DNA of 42,461 nucleotides from Bacteroidales bacterium (GTDB taxonomy: Bacteria > Bacteroidota > Bacteroidia > Bacteroidales > Muribaculaceae): NCBI GenBank assembly GCA_900752535.1, contig CAADVV010000370.1, forward strand, positions 1-42,461, written 5' to 3'. Below, piece by piece: positions 7,588 to 41,010 of this stretch (the first letter of the stretch is position 1; each line of letters starts with the position of its first letter). The position numbers and the translations under genes are program-made. The notes beneath the pieces are model-generated. The model made no database searches. It had not been told where the DNA came from and saw only the letters and a program-made list of their open reading frames with translations.

Positions 7588-8346
7588 TTATTTGTGAAGC
7601 CCTGCCGCACGGTTACGCTCGGCGCTTTTCTTCTGTTCGTTCCACAGTTCCTCGGTATATTCCTCTTCGGGAACGTAGTCGAGATTGCCGTCGTCGTCCA
7701 TCACCCAGCAGCCGTACACGCCGAAAGTGTATTTGTCCCACTCGCGTTTGGGTTGTTCTTTCCATTTTTGGCTGTCACCCGAACAGAAGCGGATGCCGGT
7801 CTTGTCGTGCAGGTCGATACCCACTGTGACGGGTTCATCGTCTACGACCAGCGTCAGCGGTTCGCCGTTCTGCATTCCGTTTACCTCTACCGGACCGAGA
7901 TGCATTATTTCGGCCAGCACTTGCAGGTTGCGCCCGATAATCGGCGTGGGGACATACATCACTTGCTTCGTTCCCTCGTCTATCTGCACGAATGCCTTGC
8001 TGTGCCGCCCGTCCGCCGTCTCCACGTCCGCAATGATGGCTTTGCCGTCAAGAAGCTGTTTCTGTTGCGCCTCGTCATAGCGTTCCAGCGGCGAGGATTC
8101 CAGGACGGGATAGAACACCACGTCCGGCCGGCCGTCGTCCCTGCGGACAAGGGCGAAGCGACTGCGGCTCTCTATCAGTTCTCCCTTCTCGTCACGGACA
8201 CGCACCGGAAGCACGGGAGAGTGCCGACCGTCGCAAATCTCATCAAGGACACGCATCGGCAAGTCCTCGATCATCTCCTGTGTAAGCCCGAAGCGAGCCA
8301 GTGTCGGATAGGGCAATTCTGTTAGTTCAAATCGTACTGTATTCAT
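7588..8346 (-). CDS. Conjugative-element protein, DUF4099-like N-terminus (tentative)
   Basis: First gene of the minus-strand operon. The N-terminus FELTELPYPTLARFGLTQEMIEDLPMRVLDEICDGRHSPVLPV resembles the DUF4099 pattern found in Bacteroides CTns. Assigned from memory, not from a search. Confidence 0.5.
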   Translation of the reverse strand: MNTVRFELTELPYPTLARFGLTQEMIEDLPMRVLDEICDGRHSPVLPVRVRDEKGELIESRSRFALVRRDDGRPDVVFYPVLESSPLERYDEAQQKQLLDGKAIIADVETADGRHSKAFVQIDEGTKQVMYVPTPIIGRNLQVLAEIMHLGPVEVNGMQNGEPLTLVVDDEPVTVGIDLHDKTGIRFCSGDSQKWKEQPKREWDKYTFGVYGCWVMDDDGNLDYVPEEEYTEELWNEQKKSAERNRAAGLHK

Positions 8347-13918: not shown

Positions 13919-14410
13919 ATGCGAAAATTTTTCTTAGGAGCTGCCCTTGTTGCAGCAAGTTTCGGAATGGCGCAGTCTGCTGACGCGGCCACAGTGATGG
14001 ATGTAGAAGGTGTAAGTACCGTATTGGCAATCAGCGATTACGAAGGTACTTATAACGGTACGATGGACAAAATCAAGATGAAAGGGAAAGATTATGAGCC
14101 ACGTGCTGCATCTTATACTCTTGAAGGAGGTCTTTTAACTTGCGATTTTCCACAAATCGGCAGTATGCCGGGTACAATCACCATCGAATTGAATGTAAAT
14201 GTAGATGAAGAAACCGGTGAAATTACTGCTGATTCAGGAGTTGATGCTGGATATTTGACCATCTTAGGAATGGATTTGGTAAAGTTGAAGTTGGATTCTT
14301 TGACTGATGCCAAAGTTACAGGTAACACTATCGAGTTTACTTTGGCAGTATCCGGTAAGTTCTTAGGTGCAGATTTCCCTGCATCCGTACACTTTGTTGG
14401 AACAAAATAA
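13919..14410 (+). CDS. Small secreted beta-rich protein (lipocalin/calycin-like, tentative)
   Basis: Signal peptide MRKFFLGAALVAASFGMAQSADA. Followed by a hairpin terminator. Confidence 0.6.
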   Translation: MRKFFLGAALVAASFGMAQSADAATVMDVEGVSTVLAISDYEGTYNGTMDKIKMKGKDYEPRAASYTLEGGLLTCDFPQIGSMPGTITIELNVNVDEETGEITADSGVDAGYLTILGMDLVKLKLDSLTDAKVTGNTIEFTLAVSGKFLGADFPASVHFVGTK

Positions 14411-14458
14411 TTCGTCATTATTTTGTCAAGCAACGAAATTAAATTCAGAAAGAGTAAG

Positions 14459-14496
14459 GAGAAAGCTGTCAAACGGCTTTCTCTTAGCTCTTTTTG
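14459..14496 (+). terminator. Hairpin terminator
   Basis: GAGAAAGC / GCTTTCTC 8-bp stem, T-run at 14491-14495. Confidence 0.45.
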
Positions 14497-14821
14497 TGTG
14501 TTTACTAAGAAAAATTTATCACAACATATTCACCTCACCCAATGGGGAAGACACCATTATCCTGTCAGCAAGGCTGCTATGCCGCTAAAAACACTTCCGG
14601 TATGCAACCGACGGCGAGGAAACAAAATTATCCAAACCGCCTGAACCGCTTCTGAAGCCTACATGCGGTACACATCAAAGACAGACTTTGCCATCGGAAA
14701 AAGCCTGCCTTTAATCATGTAAAAACCATGACTTTACATACCCTTTGCGGAATACACGCAGGCAAGGGTAATGAACAGGAAACAATTATAGGTTACAAAA
14801 CAAGTAAATTATATAAGCAAA

Positions 14822-27075: not shown

Positions 27076-30000
27076 ATGAGTTACAACAAATTGAAATCAC
27101 TGGTGGCAAACGTGGAAGCCATTGCAACGGCAATGAAAATCCGTATCGACGACAGGCAAGCCACCGACGAAGAGAAAGAGGTATTATCCCGATATTCCGG
27201 TTTCGGGGGTATTAAAGACGTGTTGAGCATAGGAACGGAACGCACTGCCAACGATGATGTGGCCGAGCATATCCACAGGTTGCAAGACTTGATAGAAGCA
27301 TATCCCTATTACGACGACGCCATGCGGCAAGCCGTCATCGACAGTATAAAATCCTCTGTCCTGACCGCTTTTTACACGCCGAAATTCCTCATAGACGCAG
27401 TAGCCCGGCAGATACACGCCACATTCAAGGATAACAGCCTGCAAATGCGCACGTTCCTCGAACCCAGTGCCGGGATAGGCGGTTTTCTGCCCGTCGCCAT
27501 GCCTGACACCCGCAGCTACGCCTTTGAAAAAGATTGCCTTACGGGACTTATCCTGTCGTTTCTGCATGATAAGACGACCACGGTAACGGCAGGTTTCGAG
27601 ACGATAGCCGACCAGCATCTGGAGCACGGGAGCTTCGATGTTATCGCCTCGAATATCCCGTTCGGCAATTTCCGGGTGTTCGACGCGGAAATGTGGAAGA
27701 AAGGCGGCATGTACGAACAGTCAGCCAAGACCATACACAACTACTTTTTTGTCAAGGCAATGGAACTGTTGAACGAGGGCGGACTGCTGGCGTTCGTTGC
27801 GCCGAGAGGAATTGCCGACACGCCGGGCAACAAGTTCGTGCGCGAGTACCTCGTCAATCATGCCGACCTCATAACGGCCTTACGGCTGCCCGATACCCTT
27901 TTCATGCAGACGAGCGGCATAGAGGTAGGGAGCGACCTCCTGATATTCCAGAAACACAGCCGCAAGGCGACGCTCTCGTTACGGGAGAAGATGTTTTTGC
28001 AGGTTTCCAAGGAAAAGGCCGACACGGCGGGAACGACAACCGACTATGCGAATAAAATCTTTACCCTCCCCAAGACCGCCCTTGCCACGGACAGCCGCAT
28101 TGCGCTGAACCAGTTCGGAAAGTACGTCCGCAAATACCAGTGGTTAGGCGATGAAAATGCCATGTCCCAATACCTTTCCGCACTGCTCAAATACGACTTC
28201 GACCGCTATTTTCGCAAAGCTCTTTTCGCCAGCCACGGCCAAGACAACGCCCCCGTGCAGATGTCCCTTTTCGGCGAGCCGCAGACGGCCAAAGGCATAC
28301 GTGCCTACACGGAGAACATGGAAGCATGGATAAAGAACGGCGCAATGGTCGTTTTCGAGGGGCAGGTAGGTACGCTCCGGTTCCGCAAGTCGAGCCGTTA
28401 CACGGAGACAGCCGTCGATTTCGTACCCGTGGACGAGGGCAAGGTAAACACGGACAGGGCCGCCGACTATTTCCCCATACGCAAGGCGTATTTCGAGCTG
28501 TCCGGCAGGGAACGGGAAGAACAAAAGGAGTGCCCGGAGCTGCGTAAACAACTCAACGCCCTATACGACGCTTTTGTTGCCAAATGGGGATTTTTCCACG
28601 ACAACGACAACAAAGAGTTTATCATGCTCGACAGCCTCGGTACGGAGGTGTTCACGATAGAAATGCAGGTCGGCAGGGACATCTTCAAAGCCGATGTTAT
28701 GCGTGAACCAGTCGCTTTCAAGAAGATAGACACCGCCGTAACGCTGTCCCCCGTGGAAGCCTTGGCAAGCAGCCTGAACTTTTACGGCAAGGTCGATATG
28801 GGCTACATGGCACAAGCCACGAACAAGGAGGAAGAAGAAATCATCGAAGCCCTGCAAGGGGAAATCTTCTACAATCCGGCCAGCGCAGAATGGGAGCACA
28901 AAGGGAAGTTCCTCGCCGGAAACGTCATAGCCAAGCAGCAAGAAACGCTATCCTTTCTCCCGGATCTCGCCGGAAAGGAGAAAGAATGGGCCGAAGCGTC
29001 CGCAAAGGCACTGGAGAACACCATACCCGAACCGATACCCTATGAAGAACTCGACATCAACATGGGCGAGCGGTGGATAGATACGAAGCTGTACGCCGAT
29101 TTCGCCTCCGAACTCTTCGGAGTGGGTGCGGATGTGATGTATTTCGACGTGAACGACACCTACCTGATTCGGCTGCAGGGATATTCACCCGTGGCATACA
29201 ATACCTATTCCGTGCGCAACTACAACGGCGAGGATTTGTTTGTACACGCCCTGCACGATACCGTTCCCGAAATAACGAGAGAGGAATATCGGAACGGCAG
29301 CAAAGTACGTGTGCCGGACGAGGAAGCCATGCAGGAGGCCGCCGCCAAGATACAGGAAATCAGAGAACGTTTCAACCAGTGGCTCGACAACGAGCCACTG
29401 GAAGGCCGGGACGAACTGGTAAGGACATACAACGAGCGTTTCAACTGTTACGTGCGTCCGCACTACGACGGCTCGGCGCAGACATTCCCCGGCCTCTCTT
29501 TCGAGCAGTTCCCGTACAAAGAACTTTATCCCTCACAGAAAGACGCTATCTGGATGATAAAGCAGAACGGCGGCGGTATCTGCTGGCACGAGGTCGGTAC
29601 GGGCAAGACGATGATAATGTGCGTGGCCGCCTACGAAATGAAACGTCTCGGACTGGTGCAGAAACCCCTCATTATCGGGCTGAAAGCTAACGTGCACGAG
29701 ATTGCCGACACGTTCCGAAAGGCATACCCCGCAGCCAAGGTGCTCTATCCGGGCAAGGAAGATTTCACCCCTGCCAATCGCAAAGAGGTGTTTTCAAAAA
29801 TCAAGAACAACAACTGGGACTGCATTATCCTGACACACGACCAGTTTAGCAAGATTCCGCAGTCCGAAGAAACCATGTACGACATATTCTCGGAAGAACT
29901 GGCCGACGTGGAGCACAGCCTCGAAGTGTTGGAGCAGTCCACCATGCGCTACCGGAGCGGCAGGATGCAGAAAGGACTGGAAACCCGGAAACAAAACCTT

Positions 30001-32052
30001 AAAGCCAAGCTCGCCGAGCTGCAGATGAAGATAGACCGCCGGAAAGACGATACCGTCGATTTCCGCTCGATGGGCATAGACCACATATTTGTGGACGAAT
30101 GCCACTGCTATAAAAATCTGATGTTCCAGACACGCCACACGAGGGTAGCGGGCATCGGCAACGCGCAAGGCTCGCAAAGGGCGATGAACCTTTTGTTTGC
30201 CATTCGGGACATTCAACGCCGCACGGGAAAGGATTTGGGGGCTACGTTCCTGTCGGGTACGGTGGTCGTCAATGCGTTGACCGAACTGTACGTGATGTTC
30301 AAATACCTGCGTCCGAGGGAACTCAAGCGGCAACAAGTAAGCTGTTTCGACGCTTGGGCGGCTATCTTCACGAAAAAGACCGCTGACTACGAGCTGAACG
30401 TAACGGGTACGATAAAGCGCAAAGAGCGTTTCCGCACTTACATCAAAGTGCCGGAACTGGCGATGTTCCTGCGGGAGATTACCGACTATCGTACAGCCGA
30501 TATGATAAACCTCGATGTGCCGGACAAAAACGTGCGTTTCCTTTCCCATGCACCCACTATCCAACAGGAGGAAATGATCGGGCGGCTCGTCGCCTTTGCG
30601 CACAGCGGACAATGGGAAGATTTGGGGTTGGATATTCCGCAGCCGGACAATCTCGACAAGGCGAAAATGCTTGTAGCTACCAACGTGGCACGCAAGATGT
30701 CCCTTGATATGCGCTTGCTGGGCGACAAGTTCAGCGACGACGAGAACAACAAGGCTTCTATCTGTGCACGGACGATCTATGACTATTACGAGCGTTCGAC
30801 CGCCAACCGGGGCACGCAGTTCGTCTTCAGCGACCTTGCCACTTACAAGCCGAACGAGTGGAACATCTATAGCGACATCAAGAACAAGCTGGTGGCAATG
30901 GGGATTCCTGCCGATGAAATCCAGTTTATCCAGTGCGCCAAGACCGAACGGGCGAGAAAGAAACTCTTTGCGGACATGAACAGCGGCAGGGTACGGGTGT
31001 TGTTCGGCTCTACCTCGATGTTGGGAACGGGAGTAAACGCCCAGGAGAGGGCCGTTGCGGTGCATCATCTGGAGATACCTTGGCGCCCTGCCGACATGGA
31101 GCAGCGCAACGGTCGTGCGGTACGCAAGGGTAACACTGTCAAGCTCTGGGGAAACAACACCGTGGACGTGGTGATTTACGGTACGCAAAAGACGCTCGAC
31201 GCTTACAAATTTAACCTGTTGAAAAACAAGCAAATGTTTATCAACCAGATTAACAACGGTACGATTGCCGTGCGCCGTATCGACGAGGACGCTATGGACG
31301 AGGACAACGGCATGAATTTCGCCGAGTTCGTGGCTCTCCTGTCGGGAAATACCGACCTGTTGGAGAAAACGAAGCTCGACAACAAGATTATGCAGCTCGA
31401 AAAGGAACAGGCCATTTTCAAGAAAGACCGTATCAGGGCCGAGCGTAAGATTGCGGCCAACCGGGAAGACATAACAAAGGCCGAGAGTGCTGCCGAACGC
31501 ATGACGCAGGACTGGGAATATATCACCTCTTACACGAGAGACCGGACGACCCGGCTGTTGAACCTCGCACAAGCCACGGCGGAAGAGACCGGACGGGAGC
31601 TGCACCGCATTTCCAAGACCTACCGCAACGGGGCAATCAGCACGATAGGCACGTATGCCGGATTGAACCTTTCGGTGTACAGCGAGTATGACATGGGCGG
31701 TACATTTTACCGCAATACGTTCCTCGTCGAGGGCGTAAGCGGGCTTAAATACCGTTGCGGCCTGTCGGGCGCATTGCCTCTGGGCTTCGTAGAATCGTCC
31801 CGATACCCGCAAGCCGCCCTTGCCAAGCTGCCCGGCATGATTGAGGAACAACGGCAGAAGATTGCCAAGCTGGAGAGCGAGATACCCACCTTAGAGACAA
31901 TCATAGCCCGCAAGTGGAGCAAGGCGGACGAGTTGGCAAGGCTCAAACAAGAGTGCAACGCTTTACAGCATCGGATCGACGAGAGTATGAAAGAGGCGGA
32001 ACGCACGCAGTCCGTCCTTTCCGAACACGAGGCCAGCGATAAAGCGGCCTGA
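27076..32052 (+). CDS. N6-adenine DNA methyltransferase / SNF2-DEAD-like helicase fusion protein (1658 aa)
   Basis: SAM motif LEPSAGIGGF. Catalytic-type motif NIPFGN (27652-27669). Helicase motif I HEVGTGKT, motif II DECH (30094-30105), motif VI QRNGRAVRKGN. Coiled C-terminal region. Confidence 0.85.
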   Translation: MSYNKLKSLVANVEAIATAMKIRIDDRQATDEEKEVLSRYSGFGGIKDVLSIGTERTANDDVAEHIHRLQDLIEAYPYYDDAMRQAVIDSIKSSVLTAFYTPKFLIDAVARQIHATFKDNSLQMRTFLEPSAGIGGFLPVAMPDTRSYAFEKDCLTGLILSFLHDKTTTVTAGFETIADQHLEHGSFDVIASNIPFGNFRVFDAEMWKKGGMYEQSAKTIHNYFFVKAMELLNEGGLLAFVAPRGIADTPGNKFVREYLVNHADLITALRLPDTLFMQTSGIEVGSDLLIFQKHSRKATLSLREKMFLQVSKEKADTAGTTTDYANKIFTLPKTALATDSRIALNQFGKYVRKYQWLGDENAMSQYLSALLKYDFDRYFRKALFASHGQDNAPVQMSLFGEPQTAKGIRAYTENMEAWIKNGAMVVFEGQVGTLRFRKSSRYTETAVDFVPVDEGKVNTDRAADYFPIRKAYFELSGREREEQKECPELRKQLNALYDAFVAKWGFFHDNDNKEFIMLDSLGTEVFTIEMQVGRDIFKADVMREPVAFKKIDTAVTLSPVEALASSLNFYGKVDMGYMAQATNKEEEEIIEALQGEIFYNPASAEWEHKGKFLAGNVIAKQQETLSFLPDLAGKEKEWAEASAKALENTIPEPIPYEELDINMGERWIDTKLYADFASELFGVGADVMYFDVNDTYLIRLQGYSPVAYNTYSVRNYNGEDLFVHALHDTVPEITREEYRNGSKVRVPDEEAMQEAAAKIQEIRERFNQWLDNEPLEGRDELVRTYNERFNCYVRPHYDGSAQTFPGLSFEQFPYKELYPSQKDAIWMIKQNGGGICWHEVGTGKTMIMCVAAYEMKRLGLVQKPLIIGLKANVHEIADTFRKAYPAAKVLYPGKEDFTPANRKEVFSKIKNNNWDCIILTHDQFSKIPQSEETMYDIFSEELADVEHSLEVLEQSTMRYRSGRMQKGLETRKQNLKAKLAELQMKIDRRKDDTVDFRSMGIDHIFVDECHCYKNLMFQTRHTRVAGIGNAQGSQRAMNLLFAIRDIQRRTGKDLGATFLSGTVVVNALTELYVMFKYLRPRELKRQQVSCFDAWAAIFTKKTADYELNVTGTIKRKERFRTYIKVPELAMFLREITDYRTADMINLDVPDKNVRFLSHAPTIQQEEMIGRLVAFAHSGQWEDLGLDIPQPDNLDKAKMLVATNVARKMSLDMRLLGDKFSDDENNKASICARTIYDYYERSTANRGTQFVFSDLATYKPNEWNIYSDIKNKLVAMGIPADEIQFIQCAKTERARKKLFADMNSGRVRVLFGSTSMLGTGVNAQERAVAVHHLEIPWRPADMEQRNGRAVRKGNTVKLWGNNTVDVVIYGTQKTLDAYKFNLLKNKQMFINQINNGTIAVRRIDEDAMDEDNGMNFAEFVALLSGNTDLLEKTKLDNKIMQLEKEQAIFKKDRIRAERKIAANREDITKAESAAERMTQDWEYITSYTRDRTTRLLNLAQATAEETGRELHRISKTYRNGAISTIGTYAGLNLSVYSEYDMGGTFYRNTFLVEGVSGLKYRCGLSGALPLGFVESSRYPQAALAKLPGMIEEQRQKIAKLESEIPTLETIIARKWSKADELARLKQECNALQHRIDESMKEAERTQSVLSEHEASDKAA

Positions 32053-32117: not shown

Positions 32118-32280
32118 CATCTTCCGGTCTGCCGACGGCCATACCCGGTTGTAGCGGAATCTGCCCCTTGTACCTCCGACCACTCCTTTTATACCGTACT
32201 CTTTGTCTTTTATAGGCAGGCTTTCGCTTCCCCCTTTTGTAGATTGAGATGCCATCACGAACCGACGACCGTAAAGCCCG

Positions 32281-32486
32281 ACACTTTTTTCCGCAAAGTT
32301 GATTGCATCTCAAAACTTTGCCTCAAGGCCCATCTTCGATTTTCCTGATGAAAAATCTTCCTTCTCACTTCGTTCCAAGAGTATTTTTCATGGAATCCTT
32401 GCCGCAAACCCCGTGATGCAAAGACGAAGCAGAAAAAAGGATCAAACTTTCCGGTAATCGCTCGAACCGGAGGGAAATAAAAAAAC
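32281..32486 (+). repeat. Leader element L2 (divergent copy)
   Basis: TTTTTTCCGCAAAG 5' box and CGAACCGGAGGGAAATAAAAAAAC 3' box, spacing 179 nt. Ends 18 nt before the ATG at 32505. Confidence 0.55.
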
Positions 32487-32504
32487 TTAAAAACAAATTG
32501 AAAC

Positions 32505-33029
32505 ATGAAAAGAAATTCGCTTTTTGACAACTGGTTCGTTTTCAACTATCAGAGATTGCGTAACATATTCGGACGTTACTTGCACGAGGACGCCTTTCAC
32601 GACGCCTATTTGGTGATGAAACGGGAAGTCGTGATTTCGGAAATACCTGTCGAGAGTTTCGAGCCTTATTTTTTCGGCGTGTACAAGAAATGCAAGCTGA
32701 AATGTATTCACAAGGATAGTTATTACTGTTTCCCCGACAACGAACATTTCTTTTTGCTCATGCAGGAAGAGGAAACACCGTCCGTCGAGGTACTTGCAGC
32801 TTCCGACAAGTTGGTGTACGACATACTGCTGTTCGTGAAGAAGAAATATCCCCGAACGGACTACGAGCTTTTCAGGCTGAAAGAGTACGAGGCGAAATGT
32901 TCATACAGACACCTCTCTGCCTATGCAGGCATTTCCGCAAGTGCGATACACCGGAGAATAAGCGATATAGCCGACACTATCCGCAATCACGAAGGATTTT
33001 CTAAAAGGTATGCCCACGTAAATATGTAA
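32505..33029 (+). CDS. Sigma-70/ECF-like factor (region 2-like N-terminus, region 4-like HTH)
   Basis: HEDAFHDAYLVM and EPYFFGVYKKCKL are region-2-like. CSYRHLSAYAGISASAIHRRISDIADTIR is a region-4-like HTH. Assigned by pattern only. Confidence 0.5.
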   Translation: MKRNSLFDNWFVFNYQRLRNIFGRYLHEDAFHDAYLVMKREVVISEIPVESFEPYFFGVYKKCKLKCIHKDSYYCFPDNEHFFLLMQEEETPSVEVLAASDKLVYDILLFVKKKYPRTDYELFRLKEYEAKCSYRHLSAYAGISASAIHRRISDIADTIRNHEGFSKRYAHVNM

Positions 33030-33517: not shown

Positions 33518-34060
33518 GGATTGCAGGGCAGCCGATACCTTTTATAGCACGATTGTCTCCTTTTTTACCTTCAGGCTGTTTTCCCTGTTATACGTCGGCT
33601 TTCCCAGCCCGGTGAACCAGTGGGAAGTCTGTGCCGTAACAAGTCGTCAGGGAAAGGGACGGGAGGCCGTTTCAAACCGGCGGCAGCCCGGATCGTGCCG
33701 TTCCATGCCGGAGCTTCGACCTGTCGAAACAACACGGTATTCCACAGCCCGACCGGTCTTTATGCCGCTGGTTTCGGACTTTCCGCCTCTGTTCCGTATC
33801 TTTCCCTTATGACCTGCTACGTCAAGGGCAAACGGCGATACTTCTTATCCGCCCCGCGCTTTCATTCCGCCCGGTCGAAATTCAGGCGTGGAGCGGATAA
33901 GGAGAATCCCTTTCATGTTTGCCCTGGCAGACCATTGCCTGACCCGCCCAAGCCGCACTCTTTTCTACTTCATTTTCTCCTGCATTTATATCCGGCAAGG
34001 CCGTCCCCCCTTTTACCGTCATATTTTTCGACCGTTCCCGTCTCTTCTCTGCCGTTGCCG

Positions 34061-34263
34061 TCCGATTTTCCAACTGCAAAGGTCGGCTGCCGCGCTTGAT
34101 CCGGCGGCTTGAAGTGCATTCCCTGCAAATTTTTCCTTTCTGCGAAAGAGTAATTGGCCGGGAAAACCGCCGTATGAAGCCCTGCCGGCAGTCGTGCACC
34201 GCATCTGTAAAATCCCGGAACGGTTCAAGCAGAGAAAAGAACCGAAAAAAGGGTAAAAAACAG
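34061..34263 (+). repeat. Leader element L3 (core copy)
   Basis: Long identity runs with L4, L5 and L7: CGCGCTTGAT, GGCTTGAAGTG, TGCAAAT, GTAATTGGC, CGTATGAAGC. Box spacing 175 nt. Confidence 0.85.
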
Positions 34264-34286
34264 ATGTTTCACATAAAAGACAAACG

Positions 34287-34806: not shown

Positions 34807-34949
34807 GCCCGTTTATAAATTACGCAACTCCGTTGGCGGTTTCCTTTTATACCTCTCTATTTCCCTCTGCTCTTATACTTTGGCGAGGCCCTCTTCCCTT
34901 TATATCAATTATATGTATAACCTCTACGGTCTCCTCTCTGCCATCGCCG

Positions 34950-35153
34950 TCCGATTTTTCAGATGCAAAGGTAGGCTGCCGCGCTTGATCCGGCGGCTTG
35001 AAGTGTATTTCTTGCAAATTCTTCCTTCTACGAAGAGTAATTGGCAAGAAAAGCCGTCGTATGAAGCTGTACCGGCAGCCGGGTACCGCATCTATAAAAT
35101 CCCGGAACGGTTCAGGCAGAGAAAGGAACCGAAAAGAGGGAAAAAATAAACAG
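34950..35153 (+). repeat. Leader element L4 (core copy), upstream of ssb
   Basis: Same element as L3. Box spacing 173 nt. Ends 47 nt before the ATG at 35201. Confidence 0.85.
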
Positions 35154-35200: not shown

Positions 35201-35614
35201 ATGTTACATGTTCACACTATCGGACGCATCGGCAAAGACTGCCAAGTAATTTCAGGAGCACACGGCTCATTCATGGCTATGGACATAGCCGTTGACGATT
35301 ATTCAAAGGGGCAAAACATCACCACTTGGGTAAGGGTACGCAGCAACAAGGACAACCATATTCGTTTGTCCGAATATCTGACGAAAGGAAGACTCATACT
35401 CGTCGAAGGTACGCTGTCATCTTCCCTGTGGGAGGACAAGAACGGGAATAGACAGATACAGCTTTCCATTACGGCAGAGAGCCTTGCCTTTATCAATACC
35501 GGGAAACGGGAAGGCGCGGCAAACGGGGAGGGCAATGCAGTAAGCGGGGCAGACGGCGCACCCGTTCCTCCCGCAGATTTCCTGCAAGAGGAAAAGGAAG
35601 ATTTGCCATTCTGA
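35201..35614 (+). CDS. ssb: Single-stranded DNA-binding protein
   Basis: OB-fold pattern (TIGRIGKD..., TTWVRVRS, YLTKGRLILVEGTL). Gly-rich linker and acidic tail EEKEDLPF. Confidence 0.85.
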   Translation: MLHVHTIGRIGKDCQVISGAHGSFMAMDIAVDDYSKGQNITTWVRVRSNKDNHIRLSEYLTKGRLILVEGTLSSSLWEDKNGNRQIQLSITAESLAFINTGKREGAANGEGNAVSGADGAPVPPADFLQEEKEDLPF

Positions 35615-35638
35615 TAAAAAGTAAGTCTTTGAAAATAA

Positions 35639-35834
35639 AGGAATACTAAATGTAGTATATCCTATATGTAGTAGATTAGTAGCCGCTCGTCTGCGAATGT
35701 AGGATATACTACTCTTAGTTAAACTTGATTTTAGGATAGTAGTAAATACTAAAATACTATATTCCTAAAATAATAGTTTTTAGTGAATTAGTATATACTA
35801 ATTTTAGTATTTACGAAAAATAGTATTAACTTTG
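35639..35834. promoter_or_regulatory. AT-rich array of TAGTAT/ATACTA-core repeats (centromere/operator candidate) plus -7 box TAACTTTG (35827-35834) upstream of parA
   Basis: GTAGTATATCCTA (35652-35664) and its inverted copy TAGGATATACTAC (35700-35712). Perfect palindrome TTAGTATATACTAA near 35789. Further TAGGATAGTAGTA, AATACTA, TAGTATT copies. Confidence 0.55.
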
Positions 35835-35858
35835 CAAGTGGAATAAAAGAGTGAAGCG

Positions 35859-36932: not shown

Positions 36933-37110
36933 ATCCGCCCGCTGTTTCCATAGGGCGCATTCCACCTTTATAGTCTTACTATCTTTTTCTTTTTACCTGC
37001 CCGCAAGTACAGGCACATTGCCCGTTTTATCCCTATTCTAACCCTGACGGGCATATCCCTTTTTTACCGATTCCTTTACCGCTTTCCCGGCTTCATTCTC
37101 TGCCGTCACC

Positions 37111-37320
37111 GTTGTGTTTTATCAGATGCAAAGGTCCGCTGTCGCGCTTGATACGGCGGCTTGAAGTGCATTTCCTGCAAATTCTTCCTTTCTACGAAAG
37201 AGTAATTGGCAGGAAAAGCCGTCGTATGAAGCTGTACCGACAGCCGTGTACCGCATCCGTAAAACCTCAAAGCGGTTCAGGCAGAGAAAGGAACCGAAAG
37301 GAGGGAAAGAAAAAACAACG
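37111..37320 (+). repeat. Leader element L5 (core copy)
   Basis: Same element as L3 and L4. Box spacing 175 nt. Ends 16 nt before the ATG at 37337. Confidence 0.85.
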
Positions 37321-39665: not shown

Positions 39666-39750
39666 GCACTGCCGCCGGCAGATCTCCCTTTTTACCCCTT
39701 CGTTTTCCTTTTGTATGGAAATCCCTTCGCCGACGGCTCTGCCCGTCGGG

Positions 39751-40002
39751 ACATGCTTTTTCCGGTGCAAAGGTATTGCCTTGGAGGAACATTCAAGTAC
39801 CGCTACGCTATTTGAACACAATTTTTCAGCAGCTTTCCCGATTTTCAATCGTCCATATTTCGCGGACGCTCAATACCGCAGCTATAAAATTCTGCCCAAA
39901 TTCCTTGCCTGTTTCTCCCTGAAAGGCAATCTTTGATGCACGTAAAAATCAAATCCCGACGGGAGAAGCCTGAAGGCTTCCGAAAGGAGGGAAAAAATAA
40001 AC
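39751..40002 (+). repeat. Leader element L6 (divergent, longer copy)
   Basis: TTTTTCCGGTGCAAAGGT 5' box. Hairpin GAAGCC-TGAA-GGCTTC, then CGAAAGGAGGGAAAAAATAAAC 3' box. Spacing 222 nt. ATG at 40034. Confidence 0.55.
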
Positions 40003-40634: not shown

Positions 40635-40790
40635 TATCTCCTTTGTCTTTATCGCCCGCCTTCGTCCTTTTATAGTCAGCCTCCCGAATACCCCGCCACC
40701 ACCTGTTTCCTTTTATAATTGCATTCTTTCCCTTTTGTAGCGGTATGAACCGCCTGTTCTTCCCATCCGGCTTTTCCGTCCCTCACCGCA

Positions 40791-40993
40791 CGGGTTTTAT
40801 CCGATGCGAAAGTCGGACGTCGCGCTTGATTCGCCGGCTTGAAGTGCACTTCTTGCAAATTCTTCCTTCCCAAATGAAGCGTAATTGGCAAGAAGAGCCG
40901 TCGTATGAAGCCGTGCCGACGACCGTGCATTGCATCTGTAAAACCTCGAAGCGATTCCGAAGGAAAGGAATCGAAAAAAGGGAAATAAATAAT
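40791..40993 (+). repeat. Leader element L7 (core copy)
   Basis: Same element as L3-L5 but with compensatory stem changes. Box spacing 174 nt. Ends 17 nt before the ATG at 41011. Confidence 0.85.
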
Positions 40994-41010
40994 CAATAAC
41001 TCACAAGATA

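Follow-up and report, generated by a model that had tools for sequence, protein, structure and literature searches.

Leaders in a Bacteroidales Conjugative Element

The window analyzed here is a 42,461-nt contig of a Bacteroidales bacterium of the Muribaculaceae (CAADVV010000370.1, assembly GCA_900752535.1). Judging from its gene content, it is part of an integrative conjugative element (ICE), since the cluster genes and a coupling protein/tra operon lie on one side and integrases on the other. From ~24.3 to 41.5 kb most genes are on the + strand and form a one-directional cluster, and intergenic leaders of a related design stand in front of several of them. A preliminary description of one leader, at 34061–34263, had proposed that three small hairpins, called a, b and c, are conserved between leader copies. 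We find that the leader is dominated by one long hairpin that behaves as a structure of the − strand, the strand complementary to the genes, and that carries a promoter-like box near its base. The arrangement suggests promoters for single-stranded DNA (ssDNA), a proposal to which we give an even chance.

The repetition of the leader is real. Four close copies of ~235 nt each lie at 34031–34265, 34920–35152, 37083–37317 and 40761–40996, and a divergent fifth lies at ~39710–40000; all nine sequence strings on which the preliminary description was built were found in place. Seven leaders in the window combine a hairpin with a − strand box, and the leader type at 24041 has a + strand box instead. 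The features are listed below, where MFE is minimum free energy, ORF is open reading frame and ECF is the extracytoplasmic function class of sigma factors.

34065–34212 (34049–34232 with the outer extension), − strand: core hairpin of copy 1 (family 1), upstream of a 148-aa ORF, placed from MFE folds and covariation with alignment columns 21–223 mapped
34077–34084, − strand: promoter-like box of copy 1, GACCTTTG, then C; the reverse complement of the earlier 5′ box GCAAAGGTC
34136–34148: apical stem-loop of copy 1, CTTTC-TGC-GAAAG (hairpin a)
34221–34244, + strand: hairpin c of copy 1, CGGTTC...GAACCG
34213–34215 and 34251–34253: CCC and GGG of copy 1, flanking hairpin c and able to pair
34243–34259, + strand: 3′ box of copy 1, CCGAAAAAAGGGTAAAA (family consensus CCGAACAGAGGGAAAA), then an A-rich tract to the start codon
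34938–35119, − strand: hairpin of copy 2, upstream of ssb; box TACCTTTG at 34966–34973, apex 35025–35035, hairpin c 35108–35131
37100–37284, − strand: hairpin of copy 3, upstream of an 83-aa ORF and a ParB-like gene; box GACCTTTG at 37129–37136, apex 37188–37200, hairpin c 37273–37296
40777–40963, − strand: hairpin of copy 4, upstream of a 158-aa ORF; degenerate box GACTTTCG at 40807–40814, apex 40866–40879, hairpin c 40952–40973
26834–27040, − strand: hairpin of the family-2 leader, upstream of the methylase/helicase gene; box TACCTTTG at 26872–26879, apex 26939–26953
27022–27038: hairpin c analogue of the family-2 leader, with the GGG of its 3′ box at ~27045–27047
32250–32505, − strand: divergent leader upstream of an ECF-sigma-like ORF, the weakest hairpin; box CAACTTTG at 32294–32301, 3′ box present
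39715–40000, − strand: 39751-type leader, upstream of the DUF4313 gene, with a ~230-nt hairpin; box TACCTTTG at 39768–39775, 3′ box CGAAAGGAGGGAAAA
24041–24340: leader of the first cluster gene; canonical + strand box TATTTTTG at 24041–24048, near-match TATCCTTTG at 24083
35827–35834, + strand: internal control, canonical TAACTTTG 25 nt before parA, in an intergenic region without a hairpin leader

In the 24041–24340 leader, a ~200-nt palindromic, hairpin-forming region follows the + strand box and then comes the same 3′ box (24310–24331), without a − strand box.

Sampling of Leader Relatives

Loci for comparison were fetched through the ParB-like protein, so leader sequence had no part in their selection. 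Of the 61 loci of relatives, 57 were Bacteroidales and were used. A profile built from the four window copies found 142 full leader copies in these 57 loci, all 142 on the gene strand and directly upstream of ORFs. A further match, of the profile to its own reverse strand (E 4e-19), shows the leader to be one long palindrome. Alignment A2 holds 49 copies from the window and the 57 loci (less than 95% identical to one another, mean identity 66%) and was made with MAFFT with no structure imposed. The model of the long hairpin was a vote over individual folds, which was then tested on A2 against controls in which the pairing partners were slid by 1–3 columns and against 500 shuffles. The copies in all of the counts below are related to one another.

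A distant blastn search of 34031–34265 against 72,556 plasmid records gave six matches, all in Bacteroides, Parabacteroides or Phocaeicola. The plasmid record NZ_OY725768 was considered as an extension of the element, but it is a chromosome-like fragment and does not extend it. At gathering scores, Rfam matches nothing in the whole window; at E values up to 10, a leader is overlapped by just one match, to a miRNA model on the − strand and at chance level.

The Long Hairpin

Within the single copy at 34061–34263, 4-bp stems with loops of 3–12 nt number 8, against 7.3 ± 3.1 in shuffles, and 3-bp stems number 36, against 29 ± 6. Small stems of 3–5 bp are thus at chance frequency within one copy, and only the comparison between copies is decisive. 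That comparison shows that the dominant structure, which the preliminary description missed, is one imperfect hairpin of ~150–185 nt (~34065–34212 in copy 1, or 34049–34232 with an outer extension). In single-sequence MFE folds, hairpin a already forms the tip of a single long imperfect hairpin, much of which RNAalifold recovers. In A2, its 59 pairs are formed in 87.7% of cells, compared to 36–50% in the slid controls; 32 pairs have changed on both sides (10–15 when slid), and there are 255 compensatory cells (33–56 when slid). The covariation score is 0.237, with at most 0.091 in the slid controls, and none of the 500 shuffles matches the pairing, the compensatory counts or the score. The argument that structure has been kept while sequence changed, which points to a folded single strand and not to a duplex protein site, is therefore upheld.

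The three small stems fare differently. Hairpin a (columns 115–119/132–136) is 93% paired, with one pair distributed as UA20/GC14/CG8, but it is only the tip of the long hairpin and not an independent element. Hairpin c (columns 213–217/230–234) is 91% paired, with one pair as UA29/CG10/UG4. The GATTC/GAATC form in the copy at 40791 is a true double change reached via G-U intermediates (GC41/GU7/AU1), and the stem GAAGCC-TGAA-GGCTTC at 39965–39980 is present in the place of hairpin c; among eight aligned relatives of that leader (the 39751 type), six retain it. Hairpin b (columns 172–175/186–190) is not a conserved helix, being 50% paired, which is the level of the slid controls (36–52%). Its 3′ arm (GTAC or GCA) sits in the internal loop opposite the promoter-like box, and the bases that it would enclose, CCGRCAG, are paired with the 5′ arm of the long hairpin.

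The outer extension (columns 21–32 with 212–223) is 84.5% paired, compared to 21–43% in controls, with one pair as CG27/UA11. It takes up bases from the loop and 5′ arm of hairpin c, so the two are mutually exclusive. Hairpin c is predicted to form in the 5′ untranslated region (UTR) of the mRNA, excluding the outer extension of the DNA hairpin.

On the 5′ arm of the long hairpin there is a bulge of 9–10 nt (A2 columns 89–97; e.g., 34107–34116, GAAGTGCAT) that is unpaired, yet a near-invariant TTGAAGTGCATTTC across family 1. The bulge, along with the apex motifs TCTTCC and GYGTA that are common to the families, may be sites of protein contact.

A second round of profile searching added copies that match in their 3′ half only, at 26927–27060 and 32341–32487. 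The intergenic regions before the methylase gene, the 174-aa ORF, the DUF4313 gene and the first cluster gene each fold into a ~200-nt hairpin, with z-scores for − strand DNA of −3.75, −1.54 (weak), −4.76 and −2.57, in that order. For family 2, the methylase type, 20 diverged copies are 85.7% paired, compared to 37–46% in controls, and 21 pairs have changed on both sides, compared to 4–10. Families 1 and 2 have in common the 5′ box, an apex with TCTTCC and GYGTA, a GC clamp followed by an A-run, hairpin c, and the CCGAACAGAGGGAAA box. The leader type before the sigma-like gene is found in the window and two loci only, and the other leaders in all 57 loci.

Which Strand Folds

The preliminary description left it open whether RNA or ssDNA is folded. 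When one base of a Watson–Crick pair undergoes a transition, the two strands are left with different mismatches, G·T in one and A·C in the other; counting both reveals which strand has been selected to fold. Read on the + strand, the long hairpin has 74 A·C to 43 G·T in family 1 and 54 to 28 in family 2; by columns, A·C is ahead in 33 and G·T in 19. The − strand also has the lower DNA folding energy in 41 of 49, 17 of 20 (27 of 31 over all unique copies), 10 of 11 and 6 of 6 copies of four families, and it folds better with RNA parameters as well. The mean energy difference between strands is −3.5 and −7.3 kcal/mol, compared to −1.0 and −2.8 in dinucleotide shuffles. From the A·C excess and the − strand energies we conclude that the long hairpin has been selected in the − strand, without the G-U tolerance of a + strand RNA.

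The bias is reversed in hairpin c, with 15 G·T to 2 A·C on the + strand in family 1 and many T·G pairs in the family-2 analogue. The CCC/GGG pair that clamps it has 14 U-G and no A·C. These biases indicate selection in the + strand, as expected of mRNA. The substitution pattern of an RNA helix, in which G-U is tolerated and A·C avoided, is thus seen in hairpin c and CCC/GGG only, and not in the long hairpin. Both of the molecules that had been left as alternatives appear to be represented, with the long hairpin behaving as − strand DNA and hairpin c with its clamp as + strand RNA.

A Promoter-like Box in the Distal Arm

The 5′ box of the preliminary description, GCAAAGGT(N), reads nAnnTTTGC on the − strand and lies at the base of the hairpin. 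Its position 1 is T (35%), C (33%) or G (31%), position 2 is A in 98%, positions 3 and 4 are variable, positions 5 and 6 are T in 100%, position 7 is T in 80%, and position 8 is G and the next base C in 100%. Bayley and colleagues reportedly gave, in 2000, TAnnTTTG as the −7 consensus of the Bacteroides primary sigma factor. By sequence, the − strand box matches this element, the unconstrained middle included. A canonical sigma-ABfr promoter is referred to in PMC11697453.

The strict form nAnnTTTG is found in 66 of 87, 22 of 31 and 10 of 11 unique copies of three families. On the + strand, TAnnTTTG occurs in 0 of the 87 family-1 copies, and a scan for it over the intergenic regions of the seven − strand-box leaders of the window found none. 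Leaderless genes of the window, by comparison, have a strict TAnnTTTG 20–50 nt before their starts, at +9466, +12389, +35827, −8376 and −26594. These are an outer membrane protein gene, a leucine-rich repeat (LRR) gene, parA, the DUF4099 operon and the GNAT operon.

The box is always at a defect in the helix. In family 1, A-n-n-T-T-T has a pairing probability of 0.24–0.37 between flanks of 0.8–0.99, and in copy 1 the A-C-C-T-T-T of the box lies inside an internal loop. In family 2, the loop is at or just 5′ of the T-A, and in the 39751 type, the A and the next base have a pairing probability of 0.02–0.08. The place on the proximal arm that corresponds to the box reads GTGTACC or similar, and for that reason the duplex form has no box facing the gene.

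Possible Function as Single-Stranded DNA Promoters

A strong terminator-like hairpin (z −4 to −5.5) follows each cluster gene, so each gene behind a leader needs its own promoter. In two families, the strand with the statistically supported hairpin is the template of the downstream gene. Its box arm runs 5′ to 3′ from the loop to the base, and the facing arm runs 3′ to 5′, in the template direction, into the gene. Several leaders per region stand before genes of establishment or anti-defense type (SSB, methylase/helicase, ParB-like, DUF4313 and small ORFs). The reading we favor, with the scales about level, is that each leader would be a promoter like the Frpo of conjugative plasmids, active only while the ICE is single-stranded during transfer.

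When the − strand is single-stranded, most likely as the transferred strand of the ICE entering a recipient, ~150–230 nt would fold into the long imperfect hairpin. The arm distal to the gene would present the host sigma-A −7 element nAnnTTTG-C, and the opposite arm would continue into the template of the gene. The stem would mimic a duplex promoter, with an upstream duplex, a helix defect at the −7 box, and a downstream duplex of ~30 bp made up of the GC clamp, the A-run helix and the outer extension. From a start ~5–8 nt past TTTG, host RNA polymerase would leave the hairpin and read on into the gene. Starts are predicted near 34205–34210, 35092–35097, 37257–37262 and 40936–40941, in a conserved RTAAAA of the proximal arm. 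The resulting 5′ UTR of ~71–105 nt would fold into hairpin c, clamped by CCC/GGG and followed by the A-rich 3′ box, and this module could have a role in mRNA stability or translation. Once the complementary strand is made, the hairpin would be lost, the box would face away from the gene, and the + strand would offer no box, so that expression would be self-terminating.

We are a shade less confident, a little short of even, of the broader proposal that Bacteroidota conjugative elements have evolved their own class of ssDNA promoter, either independently or beyond recognizable homology. Its hallmarks, as suggested by the sequences, would be a distal arm that bears the sigma-A −7 box, a helix defect built in where melting would begin, at the box's invariant A, and a 3′ segment that doubles as the downstream duplex in DNA and as hairpin c in mRNA.

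Several observations weigh against the ssDNA promoter. The strand asymmetries, although consistent across families, are modest, and they come from related sequences. Family 1 has no conserved −33 TTTG at the canonical 19–21 nt upstream of the box, and families 2 and 39751 show only three-of-four matches (TTGG, CTTG) at a spacing of 19, all read from the sequences. As a duplex, the box would drive transcription away from the genes. The 24041–24340 leader has a canonical + strand box upstream of a similar hairpin, which is for that reason probably transcribed. The predicted DNA hairpins, at −36 to −59 kcal/mol, are weaker than the −75 kcal/mol per 300 nt that served as cut-off in finding ssDNA promoters of enterobacteria (PMC12672017).

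The direction of transfer is a further difficulty. The relaxase and oriT of the element were not found in walking right (traK/M/N, coupling protein) or left of the window; a search with the regular expression HxDx(n)HxH also gave no match, but it missed even the Pfam-annotated relaxase of locus L091 and is uninformative. The tra operon, ending in the coupling protein gene, converges on the cluster. If oriT were upstream of tra and tra entered last, as in F, then the + strand would be transferred and the model would not hold; it requires a nick on the right-hand side of the cluster, so that the tra genes are the first to enter. The map of CTnDOT, together with a statement on CTnERL, suggests that leading from the mob side is possible in Bacteroides; these are a different type of element. 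The statement, quoted in PMC5729914, is that unexcised CTnERL transfers a marker 20 kb from oriT.

Other Explanations

The RNA-like substitutions in hairpin c and CCC/GGG, which tolerate G-U on the + strand, are what would be expected if the whole repeat were a structured mRNA leader, transcribed from an unrecognized + strand promoter or by read-through and regulating stability, translation or antitermination in cis. The orientation of all copies with their genes agrees with this, as does the 24041–24340 leader, in which the + strand box precedes both the hairpin and the common 3′ box. The + strand RNA leader remains the right reading of hairpin c and the 3′ box. As an account of the entire leader it is unlikely, since A·C exceeds G-U on the + strand of the long hairpin in both families, the reverse of structured RNAs, and the − strand folds better even with RNA parameters. 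It would also leave unexplained a perfect −7 consensus conserved on the opposite strand, when no + strand TAnnTTTG is found in the 87 copies and each leader lies downstream of a terminator-like hairpin; nor does Rfam recognize any leader at either threshold. The evidence for a − strand hairpin could serve equally for a priming signal of the ssi or sso type, recruiting RNA polymerase or the Toprim primase of the element to make a primer for the complementary strand, with gene expression incidental. The element encodes both an SSB and a Toprim_2 protein, and Frpo does both jobs (PMC12672017). For priming, one or two signals suffice, yet there are at least seven boxed hairpin leaders directly upstream of genes, each hairpin is at a fixed distance from a conserved 5′-UTR module, and RNA-like substitutions accompany the conservation of the 3′ box and hairpin c, for which a primer site has no need. 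Priming as the only function is accordingly improbable in our estimation, more so than the mRNA leader.

Two explanations dispense with a folded strand. We put at the same low level as priming the idea that the palindrome is an operator or cruciform site in duplex DNA, with the − strand box an ordinary promoter of a leftward antisense transcript. The box is a good match to a duplex promoter, and the one at 26872 faces the GNAT operon, 298 nt away. In the other copies no − strand gene follows, and similarity between copies stops ~45 nt to the left of the box. Moreover, palindromes that bind protein keep their sequence without covariation, whereas here 32 of 59 pairs have changed on both sides, and the strand asymmetry would be unexplained. 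The least credible of the alternatives, to which we assign very little weight, is that intergenic regions were colonized by a selfish palindromic repeat of the MITE, ERIC or Correia type. Several imperfect intergenic palindromes of 200–230 bp, and a profile that matches its own reverse strand, do recall such repeats. Against that, 142 of 142 copies have one orientation and sit at a constant place ahead of a start codon, those at corresponding sites are down to ~66% identity, having diverged along with the element, and are not near-identical recent insertions, and the conserved promoter box and UTR module would have no explanation.

Some narrower candidates were also set aside. A promoter for the ECF-like sigma factor encoded by the element itself (32505–33029) is unlikely, as no ECF-type −35/−10 pair is common to the families; GTAAT-N16-CGTA is found in some family-1 copies only, and the leader type of the sigma-like gene is confined to the window and two loci. 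The leaders do not look like intrinsic terminators or attenuators, in which a U-run would come after a G+C-rich stem, because hairpin c is followed by GAACAGAGGGAAAA, which is A-rich; a terminator scan did not report the leaders, except for one small stem at 26838–26859. Membership in the FopS/GibS family of small RNAs (sRNAs) was rejected because those are sRNAs of 65–70 nt in Rfam, while Rfam matches nothing in the leaders.

Comparison to Known Systems

To our knowledge, the demonstrated cases of ssDNA promoters all come from IncF and IncI plasmids of enterobacteria. The Frpo/ssi of F, ColIb-P9 and pESBL go back to Masai and Arai 1997, as described in PMC11541004 and PMC12672017. In Frpo of F and in the pESBL promoters, the transferred strand forms a hairpin whose stem holds the promoter elements. 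Operons of ssb, psiB, ardA and methylase genes follow downstream, and activity is limited to the time before synthesis of the complementary strand (PMC11541004; PMC12672017). A comparable gene set is enriched in plasmid leading regions and encoded on the transferred strand (PMC11541004; PMC12672017). There are 13,089 Frpo homologues in 6,006 elements (PMC11541004), and pESBL has six ssDNA promoters (PMC12672017).

The leaders resemble Frpo/ssi in being long imperfect hairpins in the template strand of the downstream genes, with what appears to be a host promoter element in the stem, placed for transcription into the genes. They likewise come in several copies and several sequence classes per region, serve ssb, methylase, ParB-like and anti-defense genes, and would be expected to turn off in duplex DNA. 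They differ in having no sequence similarity to Frpo/ssi (the distant blastn search of 72,556 plasmids gave only the six Bacteroidales records), and their host element is a chromosomal Bacteroidota ICE instead of an enterobacterial plasmid. The Bacteroides −7 box, with no clear −33 partner, takes the place of −35/−10 hexamers, and the hairpins are shorter and weaker. Attached to them is a conserved 5′-UTR module (hairpin c and GGGAAA box) that competes with the base of the DNA hairpin.

In the minus-strand origin of filamentous phages and the sso of rolling-circle plasmids, host RNA polymerase recognizes a promoter-like imperfect hairpin in ssDNA. Those make a short primer for DNA synthesis, number one or two per replicon, and are uncoupled from downstream genes, whereas each hairpin here precedes a gene and a conserved UTR. 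The promoters of the phage N4 virion RNA polymerase depend on a DNA hairpin and SSB for activity; they have stems of 5–7 bp extruded from supercoiled duplex and a dedicated phage polymerase, in contrast to leaders of 150–230 nt with a host sigma-A box. FopS/GibS of Bacteroides are similar in being multicopy noncoding sequences, and they use sigma-ABfr promoters (PMC11697453). FopS RNAs are trans-acting sRNAs of 65–70 nt deposited in Rfam (PMC11697453), which matches nothing in the leaders.

The large survey of leading regions searched by similarity to Frpo and by sigma-70 hexamers (PMC11541004), so its approach was unable to find an element of the Bacteroides type. If the leaders are ssDNA promoters, expression of this kind would be a general mechanism, found in more than one phylum. 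Bacteroidales conjugative elements rank among the main carriers of genes exchanged in the human gut. In these elements, entry would be accompanied by a burst of establishment gene expression that ends when the complementary strand is made, with one of the genes encoding an ECF-like sigma factor. The leaders would then mark the transferred strand and the first-acting genes, including several uncharacterized proteins and the sigma-like factor, and the engineering of gut Bacteroides would gain a compact expression signal that extinguishes itself.

The Gene Cluster and Its Neighborhood

The cluster contains the following genes.

From ~24.3 kb, + strand: small ORFs and a helix-turn-helix (HTH) protein, the first part of the cluster
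27076–32052, + strand: 1658-aa N6-methylase/SNF2-helicase
32505–33029, + strand: 174-aa ORF; a 136-aa ORF is also in the cluster
Start 34287, + strand: 148-aa ORF
35201–35614, + strand: SSB gene (ssb)
Start 35859, + strand: parA, plus a gene for a ribbon-helix-helix protein
Start 37337: 83-aa ORF
Start 37642: 584-aa ParB-like gene
Start 40034: DUF4313 gene; a 55-aa ORF is also present
Start 41011: 158-aa ORF

In close relatives, HipBA and three small genes extend the cluster. Beyond the extended cluster, the end of the tra operon, on the other strand, is met head to tail. This operon includes traK, traM, a methylase, traN and others, and its last gene encodes the type IV coupling protein. Left of the window comes an operon with DUF4099, Toprim, ArdC-like and SSB-like proteins, and then integrases. 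The − strand operon that starts at 8346 of the window has an ordinary promoter box (−8376) and no hairpin leaders. It runs on in loci L083–L086 through two ArdC-N/metalloprotease proteins, a lytic glucosaminidase/M23 protein and an SSB-like protein until the integrases.

The 174-aa ORF, itself behind a hairpin leader, resembles a divergent ECF-type sigma factor. It has a weak full-length NCBIfam match to sigma70-ECF (E 4e-4, below the cut-off), and sigma factors (AlgU, SigE, SigL, SigH) dominate the top 50 Foldseek matches in the PDB to its AlphaFold model (pLDDT 75), the top matches having probabilities of 0.9–1.0 and E values of 0.01–0.5. The homologues found for it are unnamed or labeled hypothetical. 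In locus L062, from a relative in Parabacteroides distasonis, the region 14082–14819 beside the coupling protein gene is annotated as a protein with the C-terminal domain of the RNA polymerase alpha subunit, which is a possible second transcription accessory factor of these elements.

At 397–2460 of locus L091, a relative of the window, and to the left of parA, a module of DUF3408, NikA-like and relaxase (PF03432) genes with HTH_17 genes replaces the ssb region. It looks like an inserted mobilizable element. Its relaxase is the only one that was encountered; as a variable insert without hairpin leaders, the module was not used to judge polarity. The AT-rich 35620–35850 region upstream of parA in the window has, by eye, many short repeats of the TAGTA/TACTA type and may be a partition site or an operator for the pair of ParA and the ribbon-helix-helix protein; the canonical promoter box at 35827 comes after it.

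A sub-threshold Rfam match to cow-rumen-1 at 30602–30661 (+ strand), inside the methylase/helicase gene, is probably due to chance (22.8 bits against a gathering score of 53.4, E 0.28). Three of the element-bearing contigs (L001, L035 and L049) are labeled as metagenome-assembled genomes of Acetatifactor, Firmicutes and Brevinema, which probably reflects binning errors and not transfer across phyla. Finally, the spacers between each terminator and the next leader are pyrimidine-rich and contain repeated CC(C)TTTTATA or CCTTTTACC motifs (repeat family D6), at 32207–32234, 33585–33612 and 40667–40694, with similar motifs at 34840–34910 and 36935–37075.

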